A DNA stretch of 24,366 nt, from contig CAZQWH010000003.1 in assembly GCA_964597145.1 (NCBI GenBank), forward strand, positions 57,113 to 81,478. Direction: 5' to 3'. The DNA is from an uncultured Candidatus Saccharibacteria bacterium. Its GTDB lineage: Bacteria > Patescibacteriota > CAZHWT01. The notes below the pieces were generated by a model. The model saw only the letters and a list, made by a program, of their open reading frames with translations. It was not told where the DNA came from and searched no databases. The position numbers were made by a program, and so were the translations under genes. Positions 1 through 22,020 of this stretch are shown in pieces (positions within the stretch are counted from its first letter, which is position 1; each line of letters opens with the position of its first letter).

Positions 1-24
1 GTTCGAATCTCTCCGGGCGCACCA
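1..24 (+). tRNA. 3' terminal fragment of a tRNA gene (5' part lies outside the window); identity undetermined
   Basis: GTTCGAATC T-loop/T-stem, acceptor 3' strand CGGGCGC, discriminator A and encoded CCA at 22-24. Confidence 0.55.
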
Positions 25-173
25 GAGGTCTGATTATGACTAAAAGCCGTAGGCAGGCCTCTGATTGTATGCGGTGAATTGGTTTGGACACTTACTGAGT
101 AAGAGTTCGCTAAAGAGGAGAGTCGCTATAATTGCGCATGCATTGTTATAGCGAAGAACTCTTTACCTCCAGA

Positions 174-196
174 AGTATCTCTCCGGGCGCACCAAA
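174..196 (+). repeat. Direct repeat of the tRNA 3' end (att-like copy 2)
   Basis: AGTATCTCTCCGGGCGCACCAAA; the 18-mer ATCTCTCCGGGCGCACCA is identical to 7-24. Confidence 0.7.
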
Positions 197-336
197 GGTT
201 TGGGAATCACCGTCAGGTGGTTTGCAAATCTTTGTGTACCCAAGTAGGAATTTGAAACGCGAAGCGTGTTCGCTGACTAGGAAAGCATTATCACGACAAC
301 GATTGTCATAATGCGAACTAGGAGCCTGGCCTCGTC

Positions 337-359
337 AGTATCTCTCCGGGCGCACCAAA
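337..359 (+). repeat. Direct repeat of the tRNA 3' end (att-like copy 3), identical 23-mer to 174-196
   Basis: AGTATCTCTCCGGGCGCACCAAA repeated exactly; ends 2 nt before the ATG of the next CDS. Confidence 0.7.
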
Positions 360-360
360 T

Positions 361-786
361 ATGATTATCAATTCGACTCTAAATCAATACGCCGGCGCAT
401 TGCTGGTAACCCCTGATGGCAAAATTATTTTGCAACAACGCGATAATAAACCAGGCATTATGAACCCAGGCCAAATCACCACCTTTGGCGGAGCAGTCGA
501 AGATGGAGAAACGCCCGAGCAAGCCATAATCCGCGAGCTAAAAGAAGAGCTGGATTTAGAATATAACCAGCCTAAACTCTACAAAATTCTTCACAAAACT
601 CAAGCCACCCATGGCGAAGATCGAGAAATGCATATTTACCTCGTCCAGAATATTGACCCAACCGCTCTGGTCGTTCATGAGGGTCAGGGGTATATCCAAA
701 TTTCATCCAACGACAACTTGAGCCAATTTTACTTGACAGCATTTACCCGTGAATTGTTAGCAGATTATTTTAGACTGGTTGATTAA
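361..786 (+). CDS. NUDIX hydrolase
   Basis: Nudix box GGAVEDGETPEQAIIRELKEELDL fits GX5EX7REUXEEXGU; 141 aa. Confidence 0.85.
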   Translation: MIINSTLNQYAGALLVTPDGKIILQQRDNKPGIMNPGQITTFGGAVEDGETPEQAIIRELKEELDLEYNQPKLYKILHKTQATHGEDREMHIYLVQNIDPTALVVHEGQGYIQISSNDNLSQFYLTAFTRELLADYFRLVD

Positions 787-7394: not shown

Positions 7395-7413
7395 CGTGGA
7401 TGTAGCTCAGCTG
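7395..7413 (+). repeat. Duplicated 5' fragment of tRNA-His (TGGATGTAGCTCAGCTG)
   Basis: 17-19 nt identical to 7517-7533, lying ~100 bp upstream of the intact gene; no tRNA fold follows. Confidence 0.6.
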
Positions 7414-7514
7414 CAACGGCGTAGCCGGAATGCAGACAATAAGCGCCTTGCTCTAATCAGCGGAGAGCAATTGATAGAGTAAAATAAGTCGGTACAACTA
7501 AATAAAATACTTAT

Positions 7515-7592
7515 GGTGGATGTAGCTCAGCTGGTTAGAGCGCCTCTCTGTGGAAGAGGAGGTCGTGGGTTCAAGTCCCATCATCCACCCCA
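7515..7592 (+). tRNA. tRNA-His (anticodon GTG) with encoded G-1 and CCA
   Basis: Cloverleaf: G-1:C73, acceptor GTGGATG/CATCCAC, D-stem GCTC/GAGC, anticodon loop CTGTGGA, T-arm GTGGG-TTCAAGT-CCCAT, CCA 7590-7592. Confidence 0.9.
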
Positions 7593-7767
7593 GTAAACTT
7601 CACTTCGTTTCGCTTACTTGAAGTGGTGTGAAGTTTGCTGAAGATAAGCGAAGCTCAAAGAGCGAAGTTTATCCATTAAACTACGCCAGGGCTACGCTTA
7701 ATTGGGATTAAACTTATAGTTAATCTTAGACATCATCATATTCGCTGCCTCGCTACAATGAGGATTC

Positions 7768-8079
7768 ATGTACTACACCTATATTCTACGCAGTCAGAGC
7801 CAGCCAGGCGCTATTTACATCGGCCATACTACTGATTTGAAATCACGCCTTAAGCAACATAACGCCACTTCAAGTGAAAACTACAGCAGGAGGCATGCCG
7901 CTTTGACTGTCGAGACCTATATAGTTTTCAGCAACCATAATGATGCCAAAGCATTTGAATTCTACCTAAAATCAAATTCAGGCAAAGCGTTTATGCGCAA
8001 AGGGCTTATATCAAATCGGTTCAAAGAAGCCTTGGCAAAGTTTAACAATGGTCGCACTAAATTAAGCGAATCGCCGTAA
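7768..8079 (+). CDS. Small GIY-YIG nuclease-domain protein (UPF0213/YhbQ-like)
   Basis: YTYILRS...GAIYIGHTTDLKSRLKQHN matches GIY-x10-YIG...R...H..N; 103 aa. Confidence 0.75.
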   Translation: MYYTYILRSQSQPGAIYIGHTTDLKSRLKQHNATSSENYSRRHAALTVETYIVFSNHNDAKAFEFYLKSNSGKAFMRKGLISNRFKEALAKFNNGRTKLSESP

Positions 8080-8155
8080 AGTTTAATCATCCACCATTCT
8101 GATGTTTGATGGAATTATCGTAATTAACGCTCATACTTAACGTGATCGACAATTA

Positions 8156-8184
8156 TTGATTTTAGACCTATAGCATGATATAAT
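8156..8184 (+). promoter_or_regulatory. Promoter TTGATT-N17-TATAAT with spacer TTAGACCTATAGCATGA
   Basis: Family member 2; extended -10 TGaTATAAT. Confidence 0.55.
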
Positions 8185-8228
8185 AATTATTGGAGTTTGT
8201 TAGTATCCAACTAGAAAGAGAGAGCAGC

Positions 8229-8534
8229 ATGCGCTACAAGAGGCAAGTTGGAATAGCTGCAGTAATCGCACTAATTTTCGCCAGCCTATATGTCGGCGGA
8301 GTAAGGATCGAGTGGGGTGAGAGCAACGAAGCTTTCGCAGATGATTCCATCCTGATCGACGAGAATTCAACCATAACTGCCTTGAATGGCCATGAGCCTA
8401 TCGATCCAGAATACGGAAACTGGAAGAAGGAGTATCAGCCTCGGGCATACAGCCTTCCAATTGGAGATCAGCTGTGCGTCATAGTCCTTCATCCCGAAAA
8501 TGCCGCTATCAGCTGCCTGCCGCCATCGCAGTAG
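8229..8534 (+). CDS. Hypothetical small protein with N-terminal TM anchor
   Basis: ATG 8229 with RBS GAAAGAGAGAG; the 8190 ATG of the ORF track abuts the -10 box and is probably not transcribed. Confidence 0.45.
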   Translation: MRYKRQVGIAAVIALIFASLYVGGVRIEWGESNEAFADDSILIDENSTITALNGHEPIDPEYGNWKKEYQPRAYSLPIGDQLCVIVLHPENAAISCLPPSQ

Positions 8535-8607
8535 GCATGTTCTAGGCGTGCAATTATATCTTGCAAATGAGGCTCGTTTCGATTAAGTCTCACCTAATAC
8601 ATTCTGT

Positions 8608-8633
8608 AAGGCGCCCAACTAGGCGCCTTTTTC
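8608..8633 (+). terminator. Rho-independent terminator
   Basis: AAGGCGCC-CAACTA-GGCGCCTT then TTTTC. Confidence 0.7.
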
Positions 8634-8697
8634 ATGCTCACAATTGAATTTATAGCAACAATACGCTCGTGTAAGAACTGATTTCGAAATATATCCC

Positions 8698-8715
8698 ATC
8701 ACCCACCCCATGAAG
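8698..8715 (+). repeat. Degenerate copy of tRNA-His 3' end (ATCACCCACCCCATGAAG)
   Basis: 14/18 match to ATCATCCACCCCAGTAAA of the tRNA. Confidence 0.4.
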
Positions 8716-9043
8716 ATTTCACCATTTATCACACCTGATGGGATGTTTTGACTACAAGGGCCAACTCGGGCAATCTCATAGATATGTAAACCTATATCTG
8801 TTTTATTCCTATACCTTTACTACAATAGTCATCGATTGATCGATTACAGACCTAGTGTTTAGAAGATGTGGAATGACGCTGATTCACCACAGTGAAGTAG
8901 TAGATGTCCTACGATCATTTGCTGTAGCTGGAGATCCAGCTCTACTAGACCTCAGTAATCTTGCGGTTCAGATCGCAATCTGCTGGTGAATTCAACCGAG
9001 AATAACTCAGCTCCACTAAGCACTTTGAGCCACAACACTCTAT

Positions 9044-9070
9044 GGCACCGGGCAAGCACCGGTGCCATTT
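9044..9070 (+). terminator. Hairpin terminator-like structure with no upstream annotated gene
   Basis: GGCACCGG-GCAAGCA-CCGGTGCC then ATTTCTATT; abuts the palindromic element. Confidence 0.4.
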
Positions 9071-9126
9071 CTATTGAGGTCTATTGAGGTTTAACCCCAA
9101 CCCCCTTGTTGGGGTTAAACCTCAAT
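9071..9126. repeat. Long palindromic element, copy 1 (arms CTATTGAGGTCTATTGAGGTTTAACCCCAAC, core CCCCTT)
   Basis: 31-nt left arm with tandem TCTATTGAGG, 19-nt matching right arm; asymmetric 6-bp centre. Confidence 0.6.
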
Positions 9127-9305
9127 TAATACTCAGGCATCTGTCTGAGCTTTATATTTACTGGATTGATGAGCGAGAACCCACCGATTCAGAGCCTTAG
9201 GCAGCCATTCTGTGCCAACGAGCAACAGAATAGGCGAACTAGGCATTTTCACGTAAGTGAAGAACCCCATTATCCACCCTTCCTTAAAATTACAGAGATA
9301 AATTG

Positions 9306-9337
9306 GCATAAATGGCTATTTAAATAGCCATTTATGC
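9306..9337. promoter_or_regulatory. 32-bp perfect palindrome GCATAAATGGCTATTT|AAATAGCCATTTATGC
   Basis: Exact dyad symmetry, 15 bp upstream of an att-like copy; candidate protein-binding site. Confidence 0.4.
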
Positions 9338-9352
9338 TACAGTGCAAAAACA

Positions 9353-9374
9353 ATCATCCACCCAGGTAAATTTT
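9353..9374 (+). repeat. att-like copy of tRNA-His 3' end (ATCATCCACCCAGGTAAATTTT)
   Basis: Matches the tRNA 3' end and the copies at 10000 and 10854, including the TAAATTTTC extension. Confidence 0.6.
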
Positions 9375-9420
9375 CTCCTCTATAATAACTAAACCGACAT
9401 GAGATCATTGTGATCTTACC

Positions 9421-9449
9421 TTGACATAAGACCTATAGTTATATATACT
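9421..9449 (+). promoter_or_regulatory. Promoter TTGACA-N17-TATACT with spacer TAAGACCTATAGTTATA
   Basis: Family member 3. Confidence 0.55.
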
Positions 9450-9507
9450 AATTCTGAACATCTCTTGTTTGGCCTTTTGACGTTTTAACTATTCAAGGAG
9501 TAACCAC

Positions 9508-9906
9508 ATGAGTGTCGTTACAAGTCTGCGAGAAAAGATCGCCTCGGAACAGCATGCTATCTGGTCTCACTGGATGAAGTACATGTTCACTCAGGGGATC
9601 TACAACAAAGACGGCAGTTGGATAATGCCAGCTGAAAAGGTTGAGCGGTGGAGTCGGCAAATGAATACCGACTACGTCGACTTGACCGACAAAGAGCGCG
9701 AAAGTGATCGCGATCAGGCAGATAAAGTGCTTGCAATTGCTGGTGCTAAAGTTATTCCCAAACTTACCGATGAAGAGCTTCAAACTTGGTTCAGCAACTT
9801 GCCTCCAGTGCCGACTGAAGAGGAAGAGGGTCTTGACCGCATTATCAACGATGCATTCCACAAGGTCTTCGGCCGTCCACTTAATCCAAGTGCACGACCG
9901 GAGTAG
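9508..9906 (+). CDS. Hypothetical protein (132 aa), cassette cargo
   Basis: RBS AAGGAG 7 nt upstream, own promoter and terminator; no recognisable domain. Confidence 0.55.
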   Translation: MSVVTSLREKIASEQHAIWSHWMKYMFTQGIYNKDGSWIMPAEKVERWSRQMNTDYVDLTDKERESDRDQADKVLAIAGAKVIPKLTDEELQTWFSNLPPVPTEEEEGLDRIINDAFHKVFGRPLNPSARPE

Positions 9907-9939
9907 ACTCGTAATAAATGCTGGCCTGGGTCAACCCGT

Positions 9940-9966
9940 TGGCGCCCCCTTGGGCGCCATTTTTAT
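9940..9966 (+). terminator. Rho-independent terminator
   Basis: TGGCGCCC-CCTT-GGGCGCCA then TTTTTAT. Confidence 0.7.
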
Positions 9967-9999
9967 ATGCACATTGTTAATAAAGTCCAAACATTGCTC

Positions 10000-10024
10000 A
10001 ACCATCCACCCCAGTAAATTTTCC
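10000..10024 (+). repeat. att-like copy of tRNA-His 3' end; 16-mer CATCCACCCCAGTAAA identical to 7582-7597
   Basis: Exact 16-nt identity with the tRNA-His 3' end and flank. Confidence 0.75.
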
Positions 10025-10239
10025 CACCTTTCCACAGATAATCAAAACCCCATTTCATCATTCACCTTATGGCATATCTGAAAACCCCTTTTAGACAACA
10101 GCCTTGTGGCAAATCGTCAACTAGAACCGCCGTTAGCTGCAAGTTCGTATTTCGGTAGCACTATTGCTTAAAAGTAACTAGTATTAACGCGAATTACGAA
10201 GCTCAATTTATTCCTTTTATAGCAGCAATGAAAACATTT

Positions 10240-10345
10240 GAGTTATCGTCATTGCGAGCGCAGCGCGGCAATCTAGGTTGGATTACACCCCAGGCAGGAT
10301 TGCTTCGTTTCACTCGCAATGACGTAAAATGCAAAATTATCAGAG
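10240..10345. repeat. Structured repeat, copy B (nested inverted repeats CGTCATTGCGAG...CTCGCAATGACG; GCAATC...GATTGC), flanked by GCGAATTACGAA / TTCGTAATTCGC
   Basis: 12-bp outer stem plus inner stem; related to 3336-3440; candidate small structured RNA or MITE-like element. Confidence 0.4.
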
Positions 10346-10556
10346 ATGTAGTTTCGTAATTCGCGTTATTACCTGAATTGTCGTCGTTTTTCTTCTTACA
10401 CCACTATAGTATTCCATATGAGTTTTCAGAGGGCTATCGTTTCACCAGCTATATGGTTCTGAGTCGTCCGCCCAAGGGTAGCTATTTTGTTATAAGGTTG
10501 ATTGTTAACATAGAAAATGTTATAAGAGTTTAGCTGGATACCTTTCTAGCATCCGA

Positions 10557-10580
10557 CGCGTAAGCATATATGCTTACGCG
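10557..10580. promoter_or_regulatory. 24-bp perfect palindrome CGCGTAAGCATATATGCTTACGCG just upstream of the RBS of the small basic protein gene
   Basis: Exact dyad; ends 7 nt before the SD AAGAGGAG. Confidence 0.45.
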
Positions 10581-10600
10581 CAGCAAGAGGAGACGCCGTC

Positions 10601-10777
10601 ATGACTAAGGGTGGCAAGGCGAAACGGAAGGGCTATACGACGATCGGTGAGGTCTTGTTTGGGCCTACGCCAAAGCCCAGCAGCGGACCGCGAAAGAGTA
10701 AGCGGTTCGACAAGTCGAAAAACCATCACGACTCCCGTAAGGGCGGAGGTGGCAACAATACTGGCCGCCGCCGCTAA
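10601..10777 (+). CDS. Small highly basic protein (58 aa, K/R/G-rich), not in the ORF track (<60 aa)
   Basis: ATG 10601 with strong SD AAGAGGAG 8 nt upstream, stop TAA 10775-10777, followed by a terminator; GC-rich; translation MTKGGKAKRKGYTTIGEVLFGPTPKPSSGPRKSKRFDKSKNHHDSRKGGGGNNTGRRR. Confidence 0.5.
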   Translation: MTKGGKAKRKGYTTIGEVLFGPTPKPSSGPRKSKRFDKSKNHHDSRKGGGGNNTGRRR

Positions 10778-10790
10778 CCCACTGCAGCTG

Positions 10791-10830
10791 GCCGTGTTCT
10801 CGAGGAATTTCTCGAGAACACGGCTTTTAC
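10791..10830 (+). terminator. Rho-independent terminator
   Basis: GCCGTGTTCTCGAG-GAATTT-CTCGAGAACACGGC then TTTTAC. Confidence 0.75.
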
Positions 10831-10853
10831 TAAATTCTAAAATTGTCCAACCA

Positions 10854-10875
10854 ATCACCCTCAGTAAAATTTTCC
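10854..10875 (+). repeat. att-like copy of tRNA-His 3' end (ATCACCCTCAGTAAAATTTTCC)
   Basis: Matches the 9353 and 10000 copies; related CCAACCAATCACC(C)TCA recurs at 11616-11630. Confidence 0.55.
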
Positions 10876-10965
10876 TTTTTATCTCATATAGACCTACCGT
10901 CATCTCATTTCTCTTACTGGGATGTTTGAACCTTAACTCGCACGTCCTATCATGGGCTATGATTC

Positions 10966-10995
10966 TTGACACATAGACCCATAGTGTGATATAAG
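10966..10995 (+). promoter_or_regulatory. Promoter TTGACA-N17-ATATAA with spacer CATAGACCCATAGTGTG
   Basis: Family member 4. Confidence 0.5.
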
Positions 10996-11033
10996 TTTCC
11001 TGTGGATTTTGGTCTAGACTGAGAGGAAAGGCG

Positions 11034-11540
11034 ATGCGAATTCCAACCGTTTTCTTTCTATTGATTGTCATGATCGGAGGAGGAGCTTCCGCTTCGGCAC
11101 AAACATCAACTGAAACTCCACTCAATGAATATCCATTGACCTCGGATGGGGCATACAATGCCACCATCCGAATGGTCGACCACGATCACCTATACCAACC
11201 TATGGAGTGTGGAGTATTTTACTTCCTAGCTCCAGATACCGATATAGTCGATTTTCTTGAGGGTCGACCCGAGACCGAAGTAGGCGCGCCTACAGCGTAT
11301 ACCGACCGAGATGGAATTGCCCGGGCTCGCCTTGAGCCTAATGCTAGCGGTGTATCGCGGGACTTCATCGTCCTGTACGGGCCTCTCGAAGATTGCCCAT
11401 CAGGACTCGCCTGGACGACGCTTGATGGGTTCATCAGAGTTGGTTCAGACGGAATCGCTGCATATATTCCATATGATCAGGGATCCAGTAATTTGCCACC
11501 TTTCAACTGGCAACTCGGCGTCCTAACCGTCTACGGTTAA
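11034..11540 (+). CDS. Hypothetical secreted protein with signal peptide
   Basis: MRIPTVFFLLIVMIGGGASASAQTS signal-like N-terminus; RBS GAGAGGAAAGG; GC-rich. Confidence 0.6.
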   Translation: MRIPTVFFLLIVMIGGGASASAQTSTETPLNEYPLTSDGAYNATIRMVDHDHLYQPMECGVFYFLAPDTDIVDFLEGRPETEVGAPTAYTDRDGIARARLEPNASGVSRDFIVLYGPLEDCPSGLAWTTLDGFIRVGSDGIAAYIPYDQGSSNLPPFNWQLGVLTVYG

Positions 11541-11689
11541 CGACACACGCCCGGCTCTTTGTACATCGCTAAGGGCCGGGCGGCTTTCATTTCAAAAGCA
11601 AATTCTCATAGCACCCAACCAATCACCTCATTAAGCTTCGCGTAATTAGATTGAACTACATACATCCCCCAACCATCCTTTCCTAAATT

Positions 11690-11755
11690 CTATTGAGGTC
11701 TATTGAGGTTTAACCCCAACAAGGGGGTTGGGGTTAAACCTCAATAGACCTCAAT
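11690..11755. repeat. Long palindromic element, copy 2 (same arms as 9071-9126, core AAGGGG = reverse complement of copy-1 core)
   Basis: Near-perfect 29-31 nt arms; centre inverted relative to copy 1. Confidence 0.6.
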
Positions 11756-11768
11756 TAAATCAACCTTA

Positions 11769-11798
11769 TTGACGATTTAGCCTATAGCATGATATATT
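11769..11798 (+). promoter_or_regulatory. Promoter TTGACG-N17-TATATT with spacer ATTTAGCCTATAGCATGA
   Basis: Family member 5. Confidence 0.55.
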
Positions 11799-11843
11799 GC
11801 TTCAGTCGATTTTGCGACAGCTGTTTTCACCAAGGAGAGTTTG

Positions 11844-13232
11844 ATGGAAGTCGGTTCGATAATTGGATTGGGCTTCGGCCTAATCGCAACCGTGGCACTC
11901 CTCGCACTTATCATTTTTGTGATTCACCTACGCAAGGTCGTGCCCACCAACATGGTGCACATCGTGCAGTCCGGCACGGCTACGACCAGCTACGGTAAAG
12001 ACATGGCAGCTGGAAACGCGTACTACGCCTGGCCAGCCTCCCTGCCGCGGCTTGGCGTCTCGGTAATCGCGTTGCCAGTTAGCAACTTCGAAGTGCCTCT
12101 TAAAGACTATGATGCGTACGACAAAGATCGTGTGCCATTCATGGTCGACATAACCGCCTTCGTCCATATCGCTAACACAGAGGTGGCTGCCCAACGGGTT
12201 GCCTCATTTGAAGAACTTGAGGCCCAACTTAGGACTATTGTTCAAGGAGCCGTCCGTAAGGTTCTAGCCTCAGATAACATCGACAACATCATGACGCAGC
12301 GCTCAACCTTTGGCGAAGCTTTTACCCAAGAGGTGAGCGATGGGCTGATGCAGTGGGGAGTTGAGACGGTAAAAAGCATGGAGTTGATGGATATCCGGGA
12401 TGCCAAGGAATCACGCGTCATCGCCGATATTATGGCGAAGAAGATCTCGGATATCAATCGAGAGAGCCGAATCGCCGTCGCCACTAACAACCAAGAAGCC
12501 GAAATGGCTGAACTGCGATCGAAACAAGAGGTCGACCTACGCCGCGAGGAAGTTGAGCAGGCTGTTGGTAAGCGCAAAGCCGAGCGCGAACAGGCTGTTG
12601 GTATGGCCAACGAGGTTTCCCGACAAGAAGTCCTGGAGCTGCAAAAAGAGACGACGCAGCGAAACATGGAAGTTAGGAGCATCGAGGAGACCCGTGAGGC
12701 TCAAATTGCCAGCGCTCGCGCCGTCATTCAGGCCGACCAGGAGCGCCAGACCCAGGAGTTGATCGCGCAAGGTCAACTCAAGGCTAAGGAATTTGAAGCC
12801 CAAGGCATCAAGGCCGAAGGCAACGCGCGAGCCGAAGCGGCAACAGCCATGCAGATGGCGCCAGTTGAAGCTCAGGTGGCTCTGGCTAAGGAAATTGGTA
12901 GCAACGAAGGTTACCAGCAGTTCTTGGCCATGAAGCAGGCTTTGGAGACACACCTGGCGGTCGGCACCGAACAGGCTCGTGCATTGCAAGGCGCTGACGT
13001 TAAGGTTATTGCCAACAGCAATAATGCCTCCGGCGGTGTCAGCAATGTCATGGATCTGTTTAGCGGCCAAGGTGGCACGCAACTGGCAGCCATGGTCGAA
13101 GCCTTCGCCCAGTCGGGCCTAGGCAGCAGCTTCTTCGCCTCAATGCTAAATAGCAGCCAGGCGTCAAGCAATTCGGACGTCATGCGCCAAAATGGTTCCG
13201 GAGATACGTCGGAGGTAATTATGCGGCACTAA
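11844..13232 (+). CDS. Flotillin-like SPFH-domain protein (FloT/YqiK family)
   Basis: N-terminal TM, SPFH domain, long Glu/Ala/Gln-rich coiled-coil flotillin region; ATG 11844 with RBS AAGGAGAG (the track start 11841 is TTG); strongly GC-rich. Confidence 0.85.
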   Translation: MEVGSIIGLGFGLIATVALLALIIFVIHLRKVVPTNMVHIVQSGTATTSYGKDMAAGNAYYAWPASLPRLGVSVIALPVSNFEVPLKDYDAYDKDRVPFMVDITAFVHIANTEVAAQRVASFEELEAQLRTIVQGAVRKVLASDNIDNIMTQRSTFGEAFTQEVSDGLMQWGVETVKSMELMDIRDAKESRVIADIMAKKISDINRESRIAVATNNQEAEMAELRSKQEVDLRREEVEQAVGKRKAEREQAVGMANEVSRQEVLELQKETTQRNMEVRSIEETREAQIASARAVIQADQERQTQELIAQGQLKAKEFEAQGIKAEGNARAEAATAMQMAPVEAQVALAKEIGSNEGYQQFLAMKQALETHLAVGTEQARALQGADVKVIANSNNASGGVSNVMDLFSGQGGTQLAAMVEAFAQSGLGSSFFASMLNSSQASSNSDVMRQNGSGDTSEVIMRH

Positions 13233-13260
13233 CATTAGTCGCCGCACACTTGCGACTCAC

Positions 13261-13293
13261 CCCCAGGGAGCAATTCCTGGGGGTTTTCTTTTC
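13261..13293 (+). terminator. Rho-independent terminator
   Basis: CCCCCAGG-GAGCAATT-CCTGGGGG then TTTTCTTTT. Confidence 0.75.
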
Positions 13294-13506
13294 CCACAAC
13301 CCTACATATAGTAATGCGCCAGTTCAAATACCTATAATCTTCGAGTTTACTTACCCATCTATACCCTACGCCATATATTCAACCATTAAATTATGGAAAC
13401 GCATTAGCCTATGAGGAATTCTTTAGACAACGATCTAAAGAATGTGCGATACACGCAACAGCCAGGTTAGCACTACAACGATAGCAATAGCAATGAACTA
13501 TCCGCA

Positions 13507-13566
13507 GGATTTATTTCAAAGAAATAAATCCTATAGTTTGACGTAGTATATAAAATAGTGTATAAC
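13507..13566 (+). promoter_or_regulatory. Promoter region with perfect 11-bp inverted repeat GGATTTATTTC-AAA-GAAATAAATCC overlapping a CCTATAG motif and TATA-rich -10
   Basis: IR at 13507-13531; CCTATAG at 13530-13536; -10 candidates TATATA/TATAAC. Confidence 0.4.
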
Positions 13567-13603
13567 ATCATCAGCTTACAAGCTCAGACCAGAGGAGTGA
13601 GGC

Positions 13604-14239
13604 ATGGAGATTTTGCTGTTGGTCTTTTGCTTACTTATAGGCGGAGGAGGAGTGTACCTGTGGCAAGAACACAGGCGAGACAGGATAGAGCAACAATTTG
13701 TGCTCGTTCCCCGAAGCTCACTGGGTGAGCGCCTCGAAATTTCGACTGGCAGTGGAGAGCTGATGTGCTCTCACTGCAACGGACTTCTCCAGGAAACGGT
13801 TGAAGCAGCATTGCTGATTAGCACCAAACATCCCAACCAGGCAGAGATCAAGGTCTATCGGCATCACGCTTCCAAGCATCCATATGCCGAACGAGTCGGT
13901 TTAGGAGCAGTTTATGTTTACCAAGACTTCATTTTCCCCTTTGTGGTTCCATCAACCACGCGACAGGAAATTGAGGACTGGGTATTTGCTTCTAAAATTA
14001 TTTCGAGTCATGTGGGGTGGATAGACAACCATACTTTAAGAGTCTGGGATCCACTCGCCGACTTCAGGACTGGTCAGGCGGCTGACTATCCCGAAGAGAA
14101 CCGGCTTCTCGATCAAGAGCGTATGGCGGCAGGTCTGCGGCGCATCCTCAGGATTGCTGACCTAAAACTCTATGATCCGAAAGCAGAGGACATTCCTCTC
14201 TCGGCACCGATTTCAACCGTTGAGCTACCTATAGCATAA
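13604..14239 (+). CDS. Hypothetical protein with N-terminal TM helix
   Basis: RBS AGAGGAGTGAGG; 211 aa, no recognised domain. Confidence 0.55.
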   Translation: MEILLLVFCLLIGGGGVYLWQEHRRDRIEQQFVLVPRSSLGERLEISTGSGELMCSHCNGLLQETVEAALLISTKHPNQAEIKVYRHHASKHPYAERVGLGAVYVYQDFIFPFVVPSTTRQEIEDWVFASKIISSHVGWIDNHTLRVWDPLADFRTGQAADYPEENRLLDQERMAAGLRRILRIADLKLYDPKAEDIPLSAPISTVELPIA

Positions 14240-14261
14240 TAGGACAGCTCAACAACCACCC

Positions 14262-14290
14262 GGCGGCTCTTTTAGAGCCGCCCTTTTTAT
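14262..14290 (+). terminator. Rho-independent terminator
   Basis: GGCGGCTC-TTTTA-GAGCCGCC then CTTTTTAT. Confidence 0.7.
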
Positions 14291-14395
14291 AGGCACTCAT
14301 AACGCGCTACAACACCCAGCAAATACAGATAAATTACCAAAGGACGAAAGGCAAAGATAATTAATGGATGTCTCAGTGTTGCAGGCAAAAACCTA

Positions 14396-14424
14396 CCGCT
14401 TGTTCTATACTGCTATGGTATACT
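14396..14424 (+). promoter_or_regulatory. Promoter with CTATACTGCTATGGTATACT (extended -10 TGgTATACT)
   Basis: Related to the family motif (CTATGG variant). Confidence 0.45.
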
Positions 14425-14448
14425 CTTACTATAAACTAAGGAGGGATT

Positions 14449-14778
14449 ATGCCAGATAATTTTGATAACCAGATAGAAGATAGTGGCCAACAAGATTCAA
14501 CCAAGCCGCCACTTTATCCAAATGAACCATACGAAGTCGGCGACGAGGAAATGTCCGAGCTTAACCGGGGTGGCCCAGCCACCGATGACCAAATGGTTGA
14601 ACTAGATGATCCAGCCAACCCCAACCCCGACGACCAAAATACCCGCCATTTAGAAGGACCAACTCAGCACGTAGCCGATGTTGAAACCAAGGAATGGGAA
14701 GATAGAGTTGCTGCGGAACAACGCGACCAAGAGCTGGAAGCTACCGATCAAGGCAACCCAACCAATCCTAATCTTTAG
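14449..14778 (+). CDS. Small, extremely acidic, low-complexity protein (about 29 Asp/Glu in 109 aa)
   Basis: Strong RBS AAGGAGGG 4 nt upstream; predicted disordered and Asp/Glu/Pro/Asn-rich. Confidence 0.55.
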   Translation: MPDNFDNQIEDSGQQDSTKPPLYPNEPYEVGDEEMSELNRGGPATDDQMVELDDPANPNPDDQNTRHLEGPTQHVADVETKEWEDRVAAEQRDQELEATDQGNPTNPNL

Positions 14779-14865
14779 CTAATTAATAGCACAATCTATC
14801 CTTCCGTTCATATATCTACATCATTTTTTGCAGAAAATGCCAAGTACATTGTTCGCCATGCATAC

Positions 14866-14902
14866 CCATTCAGGAAAAGGTGGGAGGCATTTGCCTCCCA
14901 CC
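14866..14902 (-). terminator. Terminator for the minus-strand gene (stem GGTGGGAGGCA/TGCCTCCCACC, U-tract on minus strand)
   Basis: Perfect 11-bp stem, TT loop; minus-strand downstream TTTTCCTG. Confidence 0.6.
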
Positions 14903-14948
14903 ATATGTGTTGCCTTGCAGTAGAGAGGGGGCGGGTAGAAGATGGGGT

Positions 14949-15308
14949 TTAGGGCCGGTATTTGTTGGACGACTCGGCATCATCGAGTGGCTCGGTGTGT
15001 GGGGCAGGACTGGATCCAAGTCCAATTCCTTGCTCATAATCACTTCCGCCACTCATGATGATGTGGCCACTGGTGGTTTCCAGCTGAACGTCGCCATTGG
15101 GAAACATGCTGACCAATTGACTCAGCTGCAGTTGGGTCTCGGTGTCCATAGGCACCGAAAACTGAAAGTAGCTCTCTTCCCAGTCAGGGTCGAGGCTGGC
15201 CAGGTTTTTCTCAATCTTCTGCCGCTGCTTCTCTGAAAGCGAAGTTGTCTGGACCGTGACGACGGCACGGTCGGCGGATTCCTGTCTGGTCTTGTTCTTC
15301 CTGAACAT
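14949..15308 (-). CDS. Hypothetical protein (119 aa), GC-rich
   Basis: RBS AGGAGCACA upstream on minus strand; terminator downstream; no recognised domain. Confidence 0.5.
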   Translation of the reverse strand: MFRKNKTRQESADRAVVTVQTTSLSEKQRQKIEKNLASLDPDWEESYFQFSVPMDTETQLQLSQLVSMFPNGDVQLETTSGHIIMSGGSDYEQGIGLGSSPAPHTEPLDDAESSNKYRP

Positions 15309-15526
15309 TTTGTGTGCTCCTGTGATTCCCTCCTACTCACAATGGCAACTACACCTAATGGTATAATAGCGTTACACTACACTCAAGACACAGGCTAGGC
15401 GAGAGGAGAAGATGAGGATGAGAGATCGGGGGTAGGACTGCTGGACGATTCAACCCAAAATCTGTATAACTCATCACCCCCCTTCAATCTCCAACCTCTT
15501 ATCGTCAATCTCTCGAACTCGCAGTG

Positions 15527-15555
15527 TTTGACAACTACCATTTTCACTTCTATAC
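15527..15555 (+). promoter_or_regulatory. Canonical promoter TTGACA-N17-TATACT
   Basis: Exact consensus -35, 17-bp spacer. Confidence 0.5.
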
Positions 15556-15597
15556 TAGCCAAAACAAAAGGCAAGCACCAAACGAGAGGGGACAAAC

Positions 15598-15885
15598 ATG
15601 ACTGCGCCTGTGCTGCCAATACCAACCAGTTCATCACGAATTATAAAAAGTCGGCTACACAATGGTAGTTGGGTAAGCTACATAGAAGTAGCAGATCGCA
15701 ACTTTATCTTACGGTACGAGGTATCGCTGGATGGTAGACCTCTAGGCACGCTAGGATTGCTTATTGCTCCACTATCTGGAGAAAGCCTGTGGTTGGCTTC
15801 GACAGATAATCAAACCTGGTCGCCGCCGGTTTGCAATGAACGCGATGCCGCTAAATTCATTCTACCCGTCAGACCAGCTTGCTAA
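15598..15885 (+). CDS. Hypothetical small protein (95 aa)
   Basis: RBS GAGAGGGGA 6 nt upstream and a consensus promoter 40 nt upstream. Confidence 0.4.
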   Translation: MTAPVLPIPTSSSRIIKSRLHNGSWVSYIEVADRNFILRYEVSLDGRPLGTLGLLIAPLSGESLWLASTDNQTWSPPVCNERDAAKFILPVRPAC

Positions 15886-16067
15886 GCCTATCCTTCCAAC
15901 CAGCATGAGGTGGCCGAATAAAACATTCGGTCACCTCGATTCACTTCTAATATCATTTTAAACTTAGAAATAGATTGAGTTTTGACTTTAAGCCTTAGAA
16001 TGAGGAAATGCTATGGTAGCAACGATTACCATAGGGATGGACTATTCACAGGGTATGAGTCAATACA

Positions 16068-16096
16068 TTGACTGATACCCTATAGTATGATATATT
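16068..16096 (+). promoter_or_regulatory. Promoter TTGACT-N17-TATATT with spacer GATACCCTATAGTATGA
   Basis: Family member 8. Confidence 0.55.
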
Positions 16097-16218
16097 TTCA
16101 GCGCTCAATAACGACAGTCAGTGCGGTAATCCATACAGTACAGCCATGACTGTTGCGATTGAGTAGGATCGTGACTGGTTGGAAGTGATTCCAACTATTG
16201 CATTCAGGGAGAGTTGCA

Positions 16219-16605
16219 ATGCAGGATGTGCCGATGCTGCAAACTGGCGAAGTCGTAGCATTTGATAACGAAGGGGGGTACGGCTTTGTTAGAGATACTC
16301 TGACTCATGTCGACTTGTTTTTTCACGTCAACGAGGTGGGCACACTAACCAGCAAACAGCCCGATAGGTTCACTCTGACCTCGGACGGCTATTATGAGCA
16401 CCGCCCAATGGTAGGCGATCGCCTGGTTTACGTTGCGGATCTTAACTACAAAAAAGGCCCACGAGCAACCGTGTGGATCGATGAACGTAGTTACCGGCAA
16501 CAGCTCAGGTGGATAAAACATCAATGGGCAGCCGAGGCTGCTGCTGTGGAGTCATATAACATATTCTCCATAAGTAGCCTTCACCAAGTCGGAGCCACAA
16601 TGTAG
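16219..16605 (+). CDS. Cold-shock-domain (CSD) protein with C-terminal extension
   Basis: GEVVAFDNEGGYGFVRD...DLFFHVNEV matches the CspA-like RNP motifs; ATG 16219 with RBS GGGAGAG. Confidence 0.6.
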   Translation: MQDVPMLQTGEVVAFDNEGGYGFVRDTLTHVDLFFHVNEVGTLTSKQPDRFTLTSDGYYEHRPMVGDRLVYVADLNYKKGPRATVWIDERSYRQQLRWIKHQWAAEAAAVESYNIFSISSLHQVGATM

Positions 16606-16758
16606 TCACATCCGACATTGTTTTACAAAAAGAGACATTCATCGGGCACTAGCACAACTAGTGCCCTATTCTCATTTCAAGCAGTCAGCATCTCTTAACG
16701 GCCAACCAGCCAGATGCTATACTTTGAATAATCTAAACAGACAAATTGCCACCGCACC

Positions 16759-18987
16759 ATGCCATCTACCGAATTACCCAATCCAATCATCCCTAAACAA
16801 AAAAAACGAAGCTTTGCCGAAATCTTTTTTCCAACCTGGACAGAATCACTGTTACGCAAAGCCCGATCCATGGCTTTTCGCCCCATAGAAACAGCCGATA
16901 TTTTGGCTCACAAATGGGGGCCGCCCACCGCTACCAATACCGCATATACTCATTGGCTAGAGAAGAAATCTATGCTCTACAATGCACGCAAACAAGCATT
17001 GCGACACACCGGCAAAGGCACCATGTGGCAAGTACCTTATGGGCAGGCCCGACCACGGACAGCTATTGCCAAAGCCTCAGTTTGGTATACCGCGTACCCA
17101 ATATCCACCATTACCAAGCCTAAACAGTCTATCCTATCGGCACTTGGAGATGAAAACTTATGGCAAATCTTTGAACAAATTGGTATCCAAGGTTTACATA
17201 CGGGCCCCATGAAGCAGGGAGGAGGCATAACTGGATGGTCATACACTCCCAGTATAGATGGCCATTACGATCGGATCAGCAACGATATCGAACCAGTTTT
17301 CGGCACAAAAACTGAGTACCAACAAATGTGTGCTACAGCCGCCCAATATAATGGGCTAATAATTGATGATTTAATCCCTGGACATACCGGGAAAGGTGCC
17401 GATTTCTTGCTGGCTCAAATGGACTACAAGTATTATCCTGGCATTTACCATATGGTTGAAATTGACCGCAAGGATTGGCGATGGCTACCCGAGGTGCCAA
17501 AAGGATACGCATCTATCAATATTAGCCCGGAAATAGAAGAAAAACTAAAGCAAGCAGGGTATATTATTGGTAAATTTGAACGGGTAATTTTTTATGAACC
17601 AGGTGTAAAAGAGACAAACTGGAGTGTGACTAAAGAAATTCGCGGGGTAGACGGCGAAAAACATCGCTGGGTGTATTTACATTACTTTAAAGATGGACAA
17701 CCGGCTATCAACTGGCTCGATCCTACCTTTGCCGGTATCCAGCTAGTAATGGGCGATGCCCTGCACTCCCTCACCGAATTAGGAGCTGGTGGTTTGCGGC
17801 TAGATGCTAACGGTTTTTTGGGGGCCGAAGTCGGCAGCGCCGATAAGCCAGCTTGGTCTGAGGGCCATCCGTTATCAGTCGCTGCTAACCAACTCGTAGC
17901 GAGCATGGTGCGCAAAGTGGGGGGCTTTACCTTCCAGGAACTAAATCTACCGTTGGAAGATATAAAAGCCAACGCTGCCTTTGGCGCCGATTTATCGTAC
18001 GATTTCATTACCCGTCCCGCGTACCATCACTCGCTAGCTACGGGGGACACCGAGTTTTTGCGCTTAATGATGCGCCAGACTCTAGAAATTGGCATCGATC
18101 CGGCCTCCCTCGTCCATGCCCTCCAAAACCACGATGAGTTAACCTACGAACTCGTCCACTTTTGGACATTGCACAAAGATGAGGAATTTTACTTTCAAGG
18201 ATCTATTTTAAAAGGCAGTCAATTACGACAGGTAATTAGAGAGCAGTTAGCAGAGGCGTTAATTGGCGATAAACACACCTACAACAAACCATTTACCGAG
18301 AATGGCATAGCCTGTACGACCCTGAGCGTGATTGCCGCCGTATTGGGCATAGAGTCGTTCAATGCCATCACCAAAGAACAACAAGAACTGATGAAAAAGA
18401 TTCATCTGCTATTAGCCATGTTTAACGCACTGCAACCGGGGGTATTTGCTTTATCTGGCTGGGATATGGTTGGTGCTTTTGTCTTAAACAACAGCCAAAT
18501 CCCCGAACTAATAGCTACTGGCGATACCCGCTGGCTTAATCGAGGTGCATACGATGTTATGGAGGTAAATCCCACCGCAAACGAGTCAATCACTGGCATC
18601 CCCCGAGCTCCACAGTTATACAAGTCTCTCCCAGAACAACTCAAAGATCCCCATTCATTCGCCAGCCAGCTGCAGCAGATTCTGAAAGTTAGAGCCTCAG
18701 TCAATCTAGCTACTAGCCATCAAATCGCCATCCCCGAAGTTGGGCATAAAGGTATTTTGGTAATGCTTCATCAACTAGATACTGGTCAATTGCAAGCTAC
18801 CGTCTTAAACTTTACCCCACAAACCATATCCGAGACCATTCATTCTCCTCATTTTGCAGCCGGCGCCGAGGTAACGAATATGTTTGACCACCACACAATT
18901 AGCACCGTTACCAAACACCACCATTTCGATATAACCTTGGAGCCATACCAAGGCCTCCCACTGCTCATTTCTACTCAGCAACCTTAG
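16759..18987 (+). CDS. GH13-family alpha-glucan-active enzyme (alpha-amylase catalytic domain)
   Basis: Conserved regions DDLIPGHTG (I), GGLRLDANGF (II), AEVGS (III), LQNHDE (IV); start uncertain (no SD at 16759). Confidence 0.75.
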   Translation: MPSTELPNPIIPKQKKRSFAEIFFPTWTESLLRKARSMAFRPIETADILAHKWGPPTATNTAYTHWLEKKSMLYNARKQALRHTGKGTMWQVPYGQARPRTAIAKASVWYTAYPISTITKPKQSILSALGDENLWQIFEQIGIQGLHTGPMKQGGGITGWSYTPSIDGHYDRISNDIEPVFGTKTEYQQMCATAAQYNGLIIDDLIPGHTGKGADFLLAQMDYKYYPGIYHMVEIDRKDWRWLPEVPKGYASINISPEIEEKLKQAGYIIGKFERVIFYEPGVKETNWSVTKEIRGVDGEKHRWVYLHYFKDGQPAINWLDPTFAGIQLVMGDALHSLTELGAGGLRLDANGFLGAEVGSADKPAWSEGHPLSVAANQLVASMVRKVGGFTFQELNLPLEDIKANAAFGADLSYDFITRPAYHHSLATGDTEFLRLMMRQTLEIGIDPASLVHALQNHDELTYELVHFWTLHKDEEFYFQGSILKGSQLRQVIREQLAEALIGDKHTYNKPFTENGIACTTLSVIAAVLGIESFNAITKEQQELMKKIHLLLAMFNALQPGVFALSGWDMVGAFVLNNSQIPELIATGDTRWLNRGAYDVMEVNPTANESITGIPRAPQLYKSLPEQLKDPHSFASQLQQILKVRASVNLATSHQIAIPEVGHKGILVMLHQLDTGQLQATVLNFTPQTISETIHSPHFAAGAEVTNMFDHHTISTVTKHHHFDITLEPYQGLPLLISTQQP

Positions 18988-19020: not shown

Positions 19021-19147
19021 CTGACTATAGGCCTATTTTATGTTATACTAATTTATAGAGGAAATTTTAGTCTAAGGTAAGAATTCTGACGAAATCCGCC
19101 GTCACCACAAAACCCCTTGGTATTTCACCAAGGGGTTTTGTTTTTTA
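19021..19147 (+). ncRNA. Candidate small RNA: promoter (CTGACT-N17-TATACT) followed about 55 nt later by a strong intrinsic terminator, with no ORF between
   Basis: Terminator AAAACCCCTTGG-TATTTCA-CCAAGGGGTTTT then GTTTTTT at 19107-19147; no ATG in the about 90-nt transcribed stretch. Confidence 0.3.
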
Positions 19148-19531: not shown

Positions 19532-19742
19532 CAGTCTCCCAACTACCCATAATAAACCCGAATCTCAATCTAATTATGAGCGTAAAAGAGTAGAGCGTCA
19601 AGTAGGCAACTTTAGGCCCTGTATGAAAGTAATTACGAAAGATATATTTTCTTTTAATGTTAAATAAAGGATCGTAGCCAAAGAAAACACTAATGCATAA
19701 GTAGTGCTAGCCATGAGCTCGCGCGAGTTAGCAGGCAACCTA

Positions 19743-19771
19743 TTGACTATTAGCCTATAGTATTATATAAT
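19743..19771 (+). promoter_or_regulatory. Promoter TTGACT-N17-TATAAT with spacer ATTAGCCTATAGTATTA
   Basis: Family member 10. Confidence 0.55.
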
Positions 19772-19807
19772 TTAGACATCGTCTTCGGCAGAGCAGGGAG
19801 AAATCTC

Positions 19808-21659: not shown

Positions 21660-22020
21660 ACCAATGAAGGGCTGGCGGATAGGGCAAAGCGGACGGGGCG
21701 GGAGATACAGAATGCGGGATACAGAATATGAAATACGAAACAAATGAGAAAATAGAAGTTGAAAGCTCGAAATGACAAATACTAAATCCAAAAAACGTAT
21801 ATACGCACGTATATACGTCGATCAAATTAACTCAGATAAATTGATGAAGGGTGGGTGGTAGAGTGGAATTCATAATTAGGGGGGGAATGTGCAAAGATTT
21901 AAGCCGCAAGGATGATCGTCTCGCTCTTGCCATGGCGAAGCGGGTGGAATACGGAAGACTGCAGTTAAAAAGAGAAAGTTCGAAATTCGAATCGTACGCT
22001 AAATGCTGTATTCTGAACAT
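21660..22020. repeat. Two diverged tandem copies (~180 bp each) of a purine-rich (+ strand) unit with internal palindromes (ACGTATATACG x2; TTCGAAATTCGAA)
   Basis: Both units start with TGAAGGG(C)TGG.GG.TAG and share GAAAG(C/T)TCGAAAT; non-coding AT/purine-rich 5' region of the MBL gene. Confidence 0.45.

Follow-up and report, generated by a model that had tools for sequence, protein, structure and literature searches.

Two long palindromic elements, PAL1 and PAL2, stand about 2.6 kb apart in an accessory gene island of an uncultured Candidatus Saccharibacteria bacterium, within the stretch of 24,366 nucleotides analysed here (the window; contig CAZQWH010000003.1, positions 57,113 to 81,478). 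They are best read as a palindromic repeat that is lineage-specific, can form cruciforms and is present here twice. It would be of the REP (repetitive extragenic palindromic) or MITE (miniature inverted-repeat transposable element) type, its copies acting as a passive substrate for inversion of the DNA between them; the probability of this reading is put at about 0.5. What would be new here is an orphan repeat, belonging to a kind already known from REP/REPIN, ERIC, Correia and small MITE-like elements. A first-pass annotation, made from the sequence alone, had favoured target sites of a site-specific recombinase and had named MITE-like palindromes as an alternative; the MITE-like palindrome fits better than the recombinase target.

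Architecture of the two palindromes

The palindrome core, TTTAACCCCAAC-CCCCTT-GTTGGGGTTAAA, has a 12-6-12 layout. It is extended outwards by a 10-nt stem unit, TCTATTGAGG, which is phased at 10 nt and occurs 2+1 times in the arms of PAL1 versus 2+2 times in those of PAL2. Reading of the sequence and a repeat search both confirm that the centres, CCCCTT in the first copy and AAGGGG in the second, are mutually inverted, and the geometry of a 2.6-kb segment flanked by oppositely oriented centres is as the first-pass annotation described it. Its statement that both elements carry full arms holds for the two left arms and for the right arm of PAL2 (31-32 nt) but not for the right arm of PAL1, which is only 19 nt long. 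The symmetry of PAL2 reaches further, to 11687-11760, at 94% (34 nt).

How alike are the two copies? In the repeat search they match directly over 58 nt, with mismatches at the six centre bases only, and in a full direct alignment the differences amount to the flipped centre and the insertion or deletion of one 10-nt unit. The 14-mer GGTTTAACCCCAAC occurs four times, versus 0.2 times expected, a number that none of 100 shuffles reached. When folded as single-stranded DNA, PAL1 gives -21 and PAL2 -33 kcal/mol (z -6.6 to -10.7), and the folding of both strands that had been proposed as a check yields strong hairpins on either of them. The hairpins are followed by a T-run on neither strand.

The margins of the palindromes carry information on their relationship. 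Directly after PAL1, the TAA at 9127-9129 equals the right margin of PAL2, and comparison of the outer margins gives 7 of 8 matching positions when the copies are aligned directly, versus 3 of 8 when one of them is inverted. When each palindrome is divided at its centre into half-sites (H1 to H4, Table 1), H2 and the outer unit of H4 share a common terminus, CCTCAATTAA. In an isomer with the segment inverted, H1 and H3 would be brought together as a perfect 33+6+33 palindrome, and H2 and H4 as a second, self-symmetric palindrome. PAL2 is flanked on both sides by TAAAT; PAL1 lacks a matching duplication.

Table 1. Positions in the window of the palindromes, their parts and the neighbouring features
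Feature	Positions	Strand	Description
PAL1	9070-9126	.	Hairpin-forming repeat of ~60 bases, intergenic
PAL1 left arm	9070-9101		Two TCTATTGAGG units + TTTAACCCCAAC
PAL1 centre	9102-9107		CCCCTT
PAL1 right arm	9108-9126		GTTGGGGTTAAA + CCTCAAT; perfect stem 19 nt; one partial unit
PAL2	11689-11755	.	Intergenic
PAL2 left arm	11689-11720		Two TCTATTGAGG + TTTAACCCCAAC; identical to PAL1 left arm
PAL2 centre	11721-11726		AAGGGG, reverse complement of PAL1 centre
PAL2 right arm	11727-11755		GTTGGGGTTAAA CCTCAATAGA CCTCAAT; two units; perfect stem 29 nt
Perfect 54-nt inverted repeat, left copy	9073-9126	.	100% identical to 11702-11755 (repeat search)
Perfect 54-nt inverted repeat, right copy	11702-11755	.	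2,575 nt between the arms
33-nt direct repeat	9069-9101 and 11688-11720	+	Half-sites H1 = H3; includes the preceding T
Half-site H1	9069-9101		Joined to left flank
Half-site H2	9108-9129		Joined to segment start
Half-site H3	11688-11720		Joined to segment end
Half-site H4	11727-11758		Joined to right flank
Bracketed segment	9127-11701	+	2,575 nt; three small orphan genes, five att-like sites
Enclosed small orphan genes	9508-9906, 10601-10777, 11034-11540		Each with its own promoter and terminator inside the segment
Promoters of the enclosed genes	9421-9449, ~10497-10530, 10926-10995		~10497-10530 read by eye, unflagged by the promoter scan
att-like copies of the tRNA 3' end in the segment	~9269, 9350, 9998, 10846, 11615	+	
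tRNA-His(GTG)	7516-7592	+	3' end ATCATCCACCCCA GTAAA recurs at the cassette boundaries of the island
Intrinsic terminator	9042-9068	+	Abuts PAL1; T-tail overlaps the first PAL1 unit
Band_7 promoter	11769-11798	+	13 nt downstream of PAL2, outside the segment
SPFH/Band_7 (flotillin-like) gene	11844-13232		Relatives include several Patescibacteria

Occurrence of the palindrome elsewhere

The window holds two copies of the palindrome, both inside the island, and no further complete or partial copy. An exact scan for the stem pattern found no match in the species-representative genomes of GTDB. The same kind of scan of JGI metagenomes found no PAL, its two matches being unrelated terminator hairpins. 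IMG/VR gave no match for the stem and none for the tandem unit, and a BLAST search of the palindrome against phage and plasmid collections likewise gave none. A genome scan for the 3' end of tRNA-His, a pattern that is too general, returned 119 loci from many phyla, including three Saccharibacteria, none of which had an att array or a PAL.

A sister species occurs in the same samples. Its Band_7 protein is 73% identical (P0122) and is preceded by an array of different small genes, and no PAL is present either upstream of Band_7 or in the array. Nucleotide homology between the window and the sister species starts at the Band_7 promoter and not at PAL2. PAL2 would therefore be a lineage-specific addition. 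A role of PAL2 as a conserved operator of Band_7 was considered and was rejected, given its absence from the sister species.

The palindromes were also traced in Logan contigs, which are assemblies at k=31 of the sequencing runs SRR11843815-38 and were found through look-ups of five window proteins. The flanks and arms of the palindromes were recovered at 100% identity in contigs of at least nine runs, and thus the palindromes are not peculiar to one assembly. In these contigs, as in the window, CCCCTT runs on into the flank at 9127, and the last base of AAGGGG into the flank at 11756.

Evidence on inversion from assemblies

With a single exception, the Logan contigs all stop inside the palindromes: those covering the left end stop at 9098 or 9102, an internal contig runs from 9308 to 11717, and those on the right begin at 11726. 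The exception is L013, a contig of 6,170 nt from run SRR11843835. Its initial 260 nt correspond to 9073-9332 in reverse complement, and the part from its position 207 onward to 11702-17665. L013 is therefore the exact right-hand junction of the isomer in which 9127-11701 is inverted; the whole contig is contained without a mismatch in the window once this segment is inverted in silico, but not in the original window.

What weight can be given to such a contig? For every k up to and including 55, the isomers yield one and the same canonical k-mer set, and at k=56 their sets differ by two k-mers. The 56-mers diagnostic of the window isomer are TATTGAGGTCTATTGAGGTTTAACCCCAACCCCCTTGTTGGGGTTAAACCTCAATT and TATTGAGGTTTAACCCCAACAAGGGGGTTGGGGTTAAACCTCAATAGACCTCAATT, and those diagnostic of the inverted isomer are TATTGAGGTCTATTGAGGTTTAACCCCAACCCCCTTGTTGGGGTTAAACCTCAATA and AATTGAGGTTTAACCCCAACAAGGGGGTTGGGGTTAAACCTCAATAGACCTCAATT. 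All 31-mers of L013 are present in the window. Since the isomers share all k-mers to k=55, a graph built at k=31 cannot distinguish them, and L013 could thus have arisen only through missing branch k-mers in a sample of low coverage.

The two isomers were compared as sources of such a contig by simulating reads from each of them, with a minimum abundance of 2, a test for unbranched paths and Minia-like tip clipping. A traversal of the L013 type was commoner when the inverted isomer was the true one, by about 2-3 times with 100-nt reads and 3.5-12 times with 150-nt reads; when tip clipping was omitted, the ratio in favour of the inverted isomer was at least 20. With the window isomer as the true one, about 4-9 window-type traversals are expected for each traversal of the L013 type, yet none of the window type is observed among the contigs. 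The physical existence of the inverted isomer is modestly supported, short of a demonstration, and the balance tips slightly in its favour. The inversion that the first-pass annotation had predicted thus stands as a physical possibility, given the 54-nt inverted repeat around 9127-11701 and the fit of the L013 junction, but the evidence that it has occurred is weak, with a likelihood ratio of about 2-12. The orientation found in the window looks ancestral and biologically coherent, because the genes and att-like sites of the segment point in the same direction as the rest of the array.

Promoters, terminators and recombinases

Would inversion of the segment have an effect on gene expression? 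Promoter and terminator scans, together with reading by eye, indicate that inversion would connect or disconnect no promoter and no coding sequence. Since the promoters and terminators of the enclosed genes would move with them, and the Band_7 promoter lies outside the segment, flipping would turn nothing obvious on or off, which argues against a programmed phase-variation switch. The presence of three cassette genes inside the segment was borne out, while the two att-like sites of the first-pass annotation become five on recounting.

The search for proteins that could act on the palindromes used domain scans with Pfam, NCBIfam and PHROGs on the 29 larger open reading frames (ORFs) of the 24-kb window, namely those of at least 94 aa plus the 58-aa cassette ORF. 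No domain of a tyrosine or serine recombinase, integrase or transposase was found in these 29 ORFs, those shorter than about 94 aa being mostly unscanned. The adjacent invertase or recombinase for which a search had been proposed is accordingly missing among the scanned ORFs. The architecture from which recombinase targets had been deduced, with symmetric arms around an asymmetric 6-nt core, is really present, but no positive support was obtained for the recombinase reading.

The terminator scan flagged the terminators of the neighbouring cassettes and left the palindromes unflagged, and a comparison of the palindromes with Rfam gave only sub-threshold matches to a generic microRNA-precursor hairpin. 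On these grounds, and given that no T-run follows the hairpins, their interpretation as terminators or as members of an RNA family was rejected; the transcript 3' structures that had been named as another alternative to recombinase targets find no support.

Possible origin of the oppositely oriented centres

How might two such copies have arisen without an enzyme of their own? The element would have been copied within the island, either by duplication in direct orientation or by a second insertion, and slippage would have changed the number of TCTATTGAGG units in the arms. The centre may then have been flipped within one of the palindromes, through recombination or template switching between its perfect inverted arms; alternatively, one copy may have entered in the opposite orientation. 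The agreement of the margins in direct orientation suggests that only the 6-nt centre was flipped, although two self-symmetric palindromes with later recombination between them would explain the pattern just as well. Flipping of hairpin loops between inverted repeats is reportedly a recurrent event that is documented in plastomes (PMC6005162, PMC2939885). Inversion of the whole segment never alters the relative orientation of the centres, so their opposite orientation would date from the origin of the pair. Neither route to it, a loop flip or an insertion in the opposite orientation (50:50 for two copies), needs a recombinase.

Once the pair was in place, inversion of the 2.6-kb three-cassette block could have followed as a side effect of general homologous (RecA-type) recombination across the perfect 54-nt inverted repeat. 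Recombination between the copies of the 33-nt direct repeat could equally delete 2,619 nt. Inversion probably occurred in at least one of the sampled populations, and would represent a structural polymorphism and not a programmed switch.

Several points weigh against a passive repeat. A family of two copies, known from 24 kb only, is thin evidence for a repeat family. A target-site duplication common to both copies was not found, TAAAT being present at PAL2 only, and no cognate transposase of the RAYT or insertion sequence (IS) type was detected among the scanned ORFs of the window. With their phasing, the 10-nt units resemble protein-binding sites, as does the 12-6-12 core, and a passive repeat needs no such sites. 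The 100% identity of the copies could reflect functional constraint. Finally, the one contig of the inverted type, L013, may be a chimera of the assembly graph, and there would then be no observed case of inversion.

Alternative explanations

The last of these points leads to a reading in which the repeats are static and the segment does not invert, L013 being a chimeric traversal of the k=31 graph in a low-coverage sample. The sharing of k-mers up to k=55 and the presence of every L013 31-mer in the window agree with this. The contigs of SRR11843835 are short for this organism, which indicates low coverage, and contigs from the other runs simply break at the palindromes. False traversals do arise in simulations with the window isomer as the true one, for example in 28 of 2,500 runs at 5x coverage. 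The same simulations, however, would have led one to expect window-type traversals 4-9 times more often, and the sole traversal seen is of the inverted type; the static reading is somewhat unlikely. Alternatively, inversion may be real and programmed, with PAL1 and PAL2 as dedicated targets of a tyrosine recombinase encoded elsewhere, the 10-nt units as accessory sites and the three-cassette block as the invertible segment. A 12-6-12 geometry like that of lox, FRT and dif, with an asymmetric 6-nt spacer, phased 10-nt repeats and opposite spacers, would be expected of such sites, as would their perfect identity, and L013 would be the junction of the inverted isomer. Invertons linked to an invertase have been reported in Candidatus Saccharibacteria (PMC7672463), and this counts towards recombinase targets. 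But a hairpin with a 6-nt loop always has this geometry, opposite centres are expected half of the time for two copies, the homology of the margins suggests a flip of the loop only, and a homology of 54 nt suffices for RecA-type inversion, no dedicated enzyme being called for. No recombinase domain was found in the scanned window ORFs, and inversion would leave promoter and coding connections as they are. Dedicated targets are for these reasons unlikely, and slightly more doubtful still is a true switch in a bacterium of the candidate phyla radiation, in which an unlinked tyrosine recombinase would read the 12-6-12 core and the 10-nt units and would flip the three-gene block or, by way of the direct arms, excise it.

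The palindromes may instead be protein-binding modules of a regulator or of the machinery that integrates the cassettes, with the TCTATTGAGG units as arm-type or accessory sites bracketing an att core and the cassettes inserted between them. About 140 nt separate PAL1 from the att-like site at 9269 that follows it, and about 60 nt separate PAL2 from the preceding one at 11615, so that the segment starts and ends with att-like sites near palindromes; the phasing of the 10-nt units and the position of PAL2, 13 nt upstream of a promoter, would also suit binding sites. The argument from spacing is, however, a post hoc one, the cassette boundaries at 7577, 8086, 8695, 9998 and ~10846 have no such element, the array of the sister species has no PAL, and no integrase was found in the scanned window ORFs, which leaves the proposal very unlikely. 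A single mobile unit at 9073-11755, resembling a foldback transposon with three cargo genes, would account for perfect terminal inverted repeats of 54 nt. It is highly improbable, since a target-site duplication is missing (the flanks are TTCT and TAAA), no transposase was found in the scanned window ORFs, the interior consists of att-bounded cassettes like the DNA outside and in the same orientation, and the direct homology of the left arms runs beyond the boundary of the inverted repeat. Least probable of all are transcript 3' structures, whether as terminators or as insulators. The palindromes are intergenic, PAL1 comes right after a terminator and the hairpins are very stable, but neither strand has a T/U tract, the scan that finds the terminators of the neighbours does not find the palindromes, Rfam offers a generic hairpin below threshold, and PAL2 lies upstream of a promoter and not downstream of a gene.

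The tRNA-His cassette island

The palindromes lie in an array of about 4 kb (window 7516-11640) that follows the tRNA-His gene and consists of units of 0.6-0.8 kb between copies of the end of the tRNA. Copies of the tRNA-His 3' end (ATCATCCACCCCAGTAAA and decayed versions of it) are found at 8086, 8695, 9269, 9350, 9998, ~10846 and 11615, all on the + strand. Every unit of the array combines a small orphan ORF with a classical terminator and with a promoter built as TTGAC...GACCTATAG...TATAAT. Within the bracketed segment, no gene or att-like site departs from the orientation of the rest. PAL1 is located in the middle of the array, right after a terminator, and PAL2 at its distal end. No integrase for the array was found among the scanned window ORFs, and a search of the literature on Saccharibacteria cassette arrays and invertons found no description of such an array.

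The array resembles stacked remnants of integrative elements that target tRNA genes, of the Islander or tycheposon type, although its modules are unusually small. The first cassette after the tRNA gene (window 7768-8079) encodes a stand-alone GIY-YIG nuclease-domain protein of 103 aa (Pfam E-value 5e-14). In the sister species (contigs L145-L154), the corresponding position upstream of Band_7 is occupied by other small genes. Outside the island, the best named relatives of a trehalose-synthase-like gene (16759-18987) come from Candidatus Saccharibacteria and are about 58-60% identical.

The promoter layout TTGAC-N4/5-(A)GACCTATAG-N4/5-TATAAT is strongly conserved, with the GACCTATAG box in the spacer. 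Promoters of this type occur in the window at 779-811, 8156-8188, 9421-9453, 11769-11798, 16058-16098, 19021-19053 and 19733-19773, and at 873-902 of L145 from the sister species. The layout is thus common to cassette genes, core genes and the sister species, and may be a lineage-specific element.

Other repeats were noted in and around the island. A perfect palindrome of 29 nt, CATAAATGGCTATTTAAATAGCCATTTAT, is present at 9307-9335 of the window and at 9227-9255 of L145 with 100% identity, while core genes of the two species are only about 72% identical and the flanks of CATAAATGGCTATTTAAATAGCCATTTAT are unrelated between them. In the window it stands between two att-like sites, and it also breaks Logan contigs; IMG/VR contains no copy. 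An imperfect hairpin of about 190 nt (10181-10372), upstream of the promoter of the 58-aa gene, has an RNA minimum free energy of -76.6 kcal/mol (z -7.9). The core of this hairpin (10247-10277, CGTCATTGCGAGCGCAGCGCGGCAATC...) has a 90% match at 1995-2025 of L008, an unrelated metagenome contig, which suggests a widespread MITE-like or structured element; Rfam gave no match to it.

A sequence at 21791-21860 (- strand) is conserved in the sister species (L145 630-724), with 84% identity over 50 nt, and adjoins an att-like CCACCCTTC motif and ACGTATATACG repeats. It lies on the opposite strand in the window, and at the start of the cassette array in the sister species. Many Logan contigs end at 21817, and the sequence may represent a second boundary of a cassette array. 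At the beginning of the window (7-365), just upstream of a NUDIX gene, there are three tandem repeats of about 165 nt with 26-nt cores (ATCTCTCCGGGCGCACCA...) at 7, 177 and 340, at which Logan contigs stop. At 7400-7415, 120 nt upstream of the tRNA-His gene, 14 nt from the 5' part of that gene (ATGTAGCTCAGCTG; 7520-7535 in the gene) are repeated and may be the remnant of a rearranged tRNA. A tRNA-like remnant on the minus strand at ~9160-9200 was also considered, and was dropped because its score was at background.

Relation to known systems

The palindromes share with REP/REPIN, ERIC/IRU, Neisseria Correia elements and very small MITEs their short length (about 55-75 nt), intergenic position, hairpin-forming capacity and near-identical copies. 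As in all these elements, their orientation is legible only from a small asymmetric part, and the copies adjoin promoters and terminators. By contrast, only two copies are known, both from one island within the 24 kb analysed; genome-wide dispersal is the defining feature of such elements. The stems also differ in being perfect and built from 10-nt tandem units, and neither a RAYT or IS transposase nor a consistent target-site duplication was found with them in the window.

Invertons such as Hin/hix, Gin/gix, FimB/E-fimS, Bacteroides Mpi and the hsdS shufflons, as well as lox/FRT (13-8-13), resemble the present arrangement in that inverted repeats bracket a segment. The symmetric arms around an asymmetric 6-nt spacer in the PAL core are another likeness, as is the hint of both orientations. 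Unlike in invertons, no recombinase is found in the scanned ORFs of the 24 kb, the repeat, at 54 nt, greatly exceeds theirs in length and is palindromic within each copy, and inversion would move no promoter and swap no coding segments. The plastid flip-flop micro-inversions of hairpin loops offer a different likeness: the loop is an exact reverse complement, the stems are perfect and the margins agree directly. Those micro-inversions are mainly found at orthologous sites in organelles, whereas PAL1 and PAL2 are paralogous copies in a bacterium, for which insertion in opposite orientations is possible.

Like the attC sites of integrons, the palindromes occur at cassette boundaries in an array of small, mostly co-oriented genes. 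However, an attC site is an imperfect palindrome that has extrahelical bases and R''/L''/L'/R' boxes, and one follows every cassette near intI and attI; the PAL stems are perfect and are present at 2 of about 8 boundaries, the recurring boundary is the 3' end of tRNA-His, and the cassettes have their own promoters. No IntI was found among the scanned window ORFs. In Islander-type islands and Prochlorococcus tycheposons, as here, small cargo modules downstream of a tRNA gene are set apart by recurring fragments of the gene's 3' end. This likeness concerns the island and not the palindromes; the island differs in that no integrase was found among the scanned window ORFs and the modules (0.6-0.8 kb) are unusually small.

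Implications

The palindromes themselves probably represent an ordinary kind of repeat, and the tRNA-His cassette array is a more unusual feature than they are. The palindromic repeat makes islands of this type unresolvable for assemblers, the isomers being indistinguishable below k=56. Since contigs assembled at k=31 break at the palindromes, the orientation of the segment in the deposited contig is not established. If the segment really flips, the accessory gene island of an ultra-small episymbiotic bacterium would provide an example of structural heterogeneity; such organisms are known almost only from metagenome-assembled genomes built from short reads. If a recombination switch were true, it would amount to a shufflon-like or integron-like rearrangement of cassettes, which is undescribed in Saccharibacteria.

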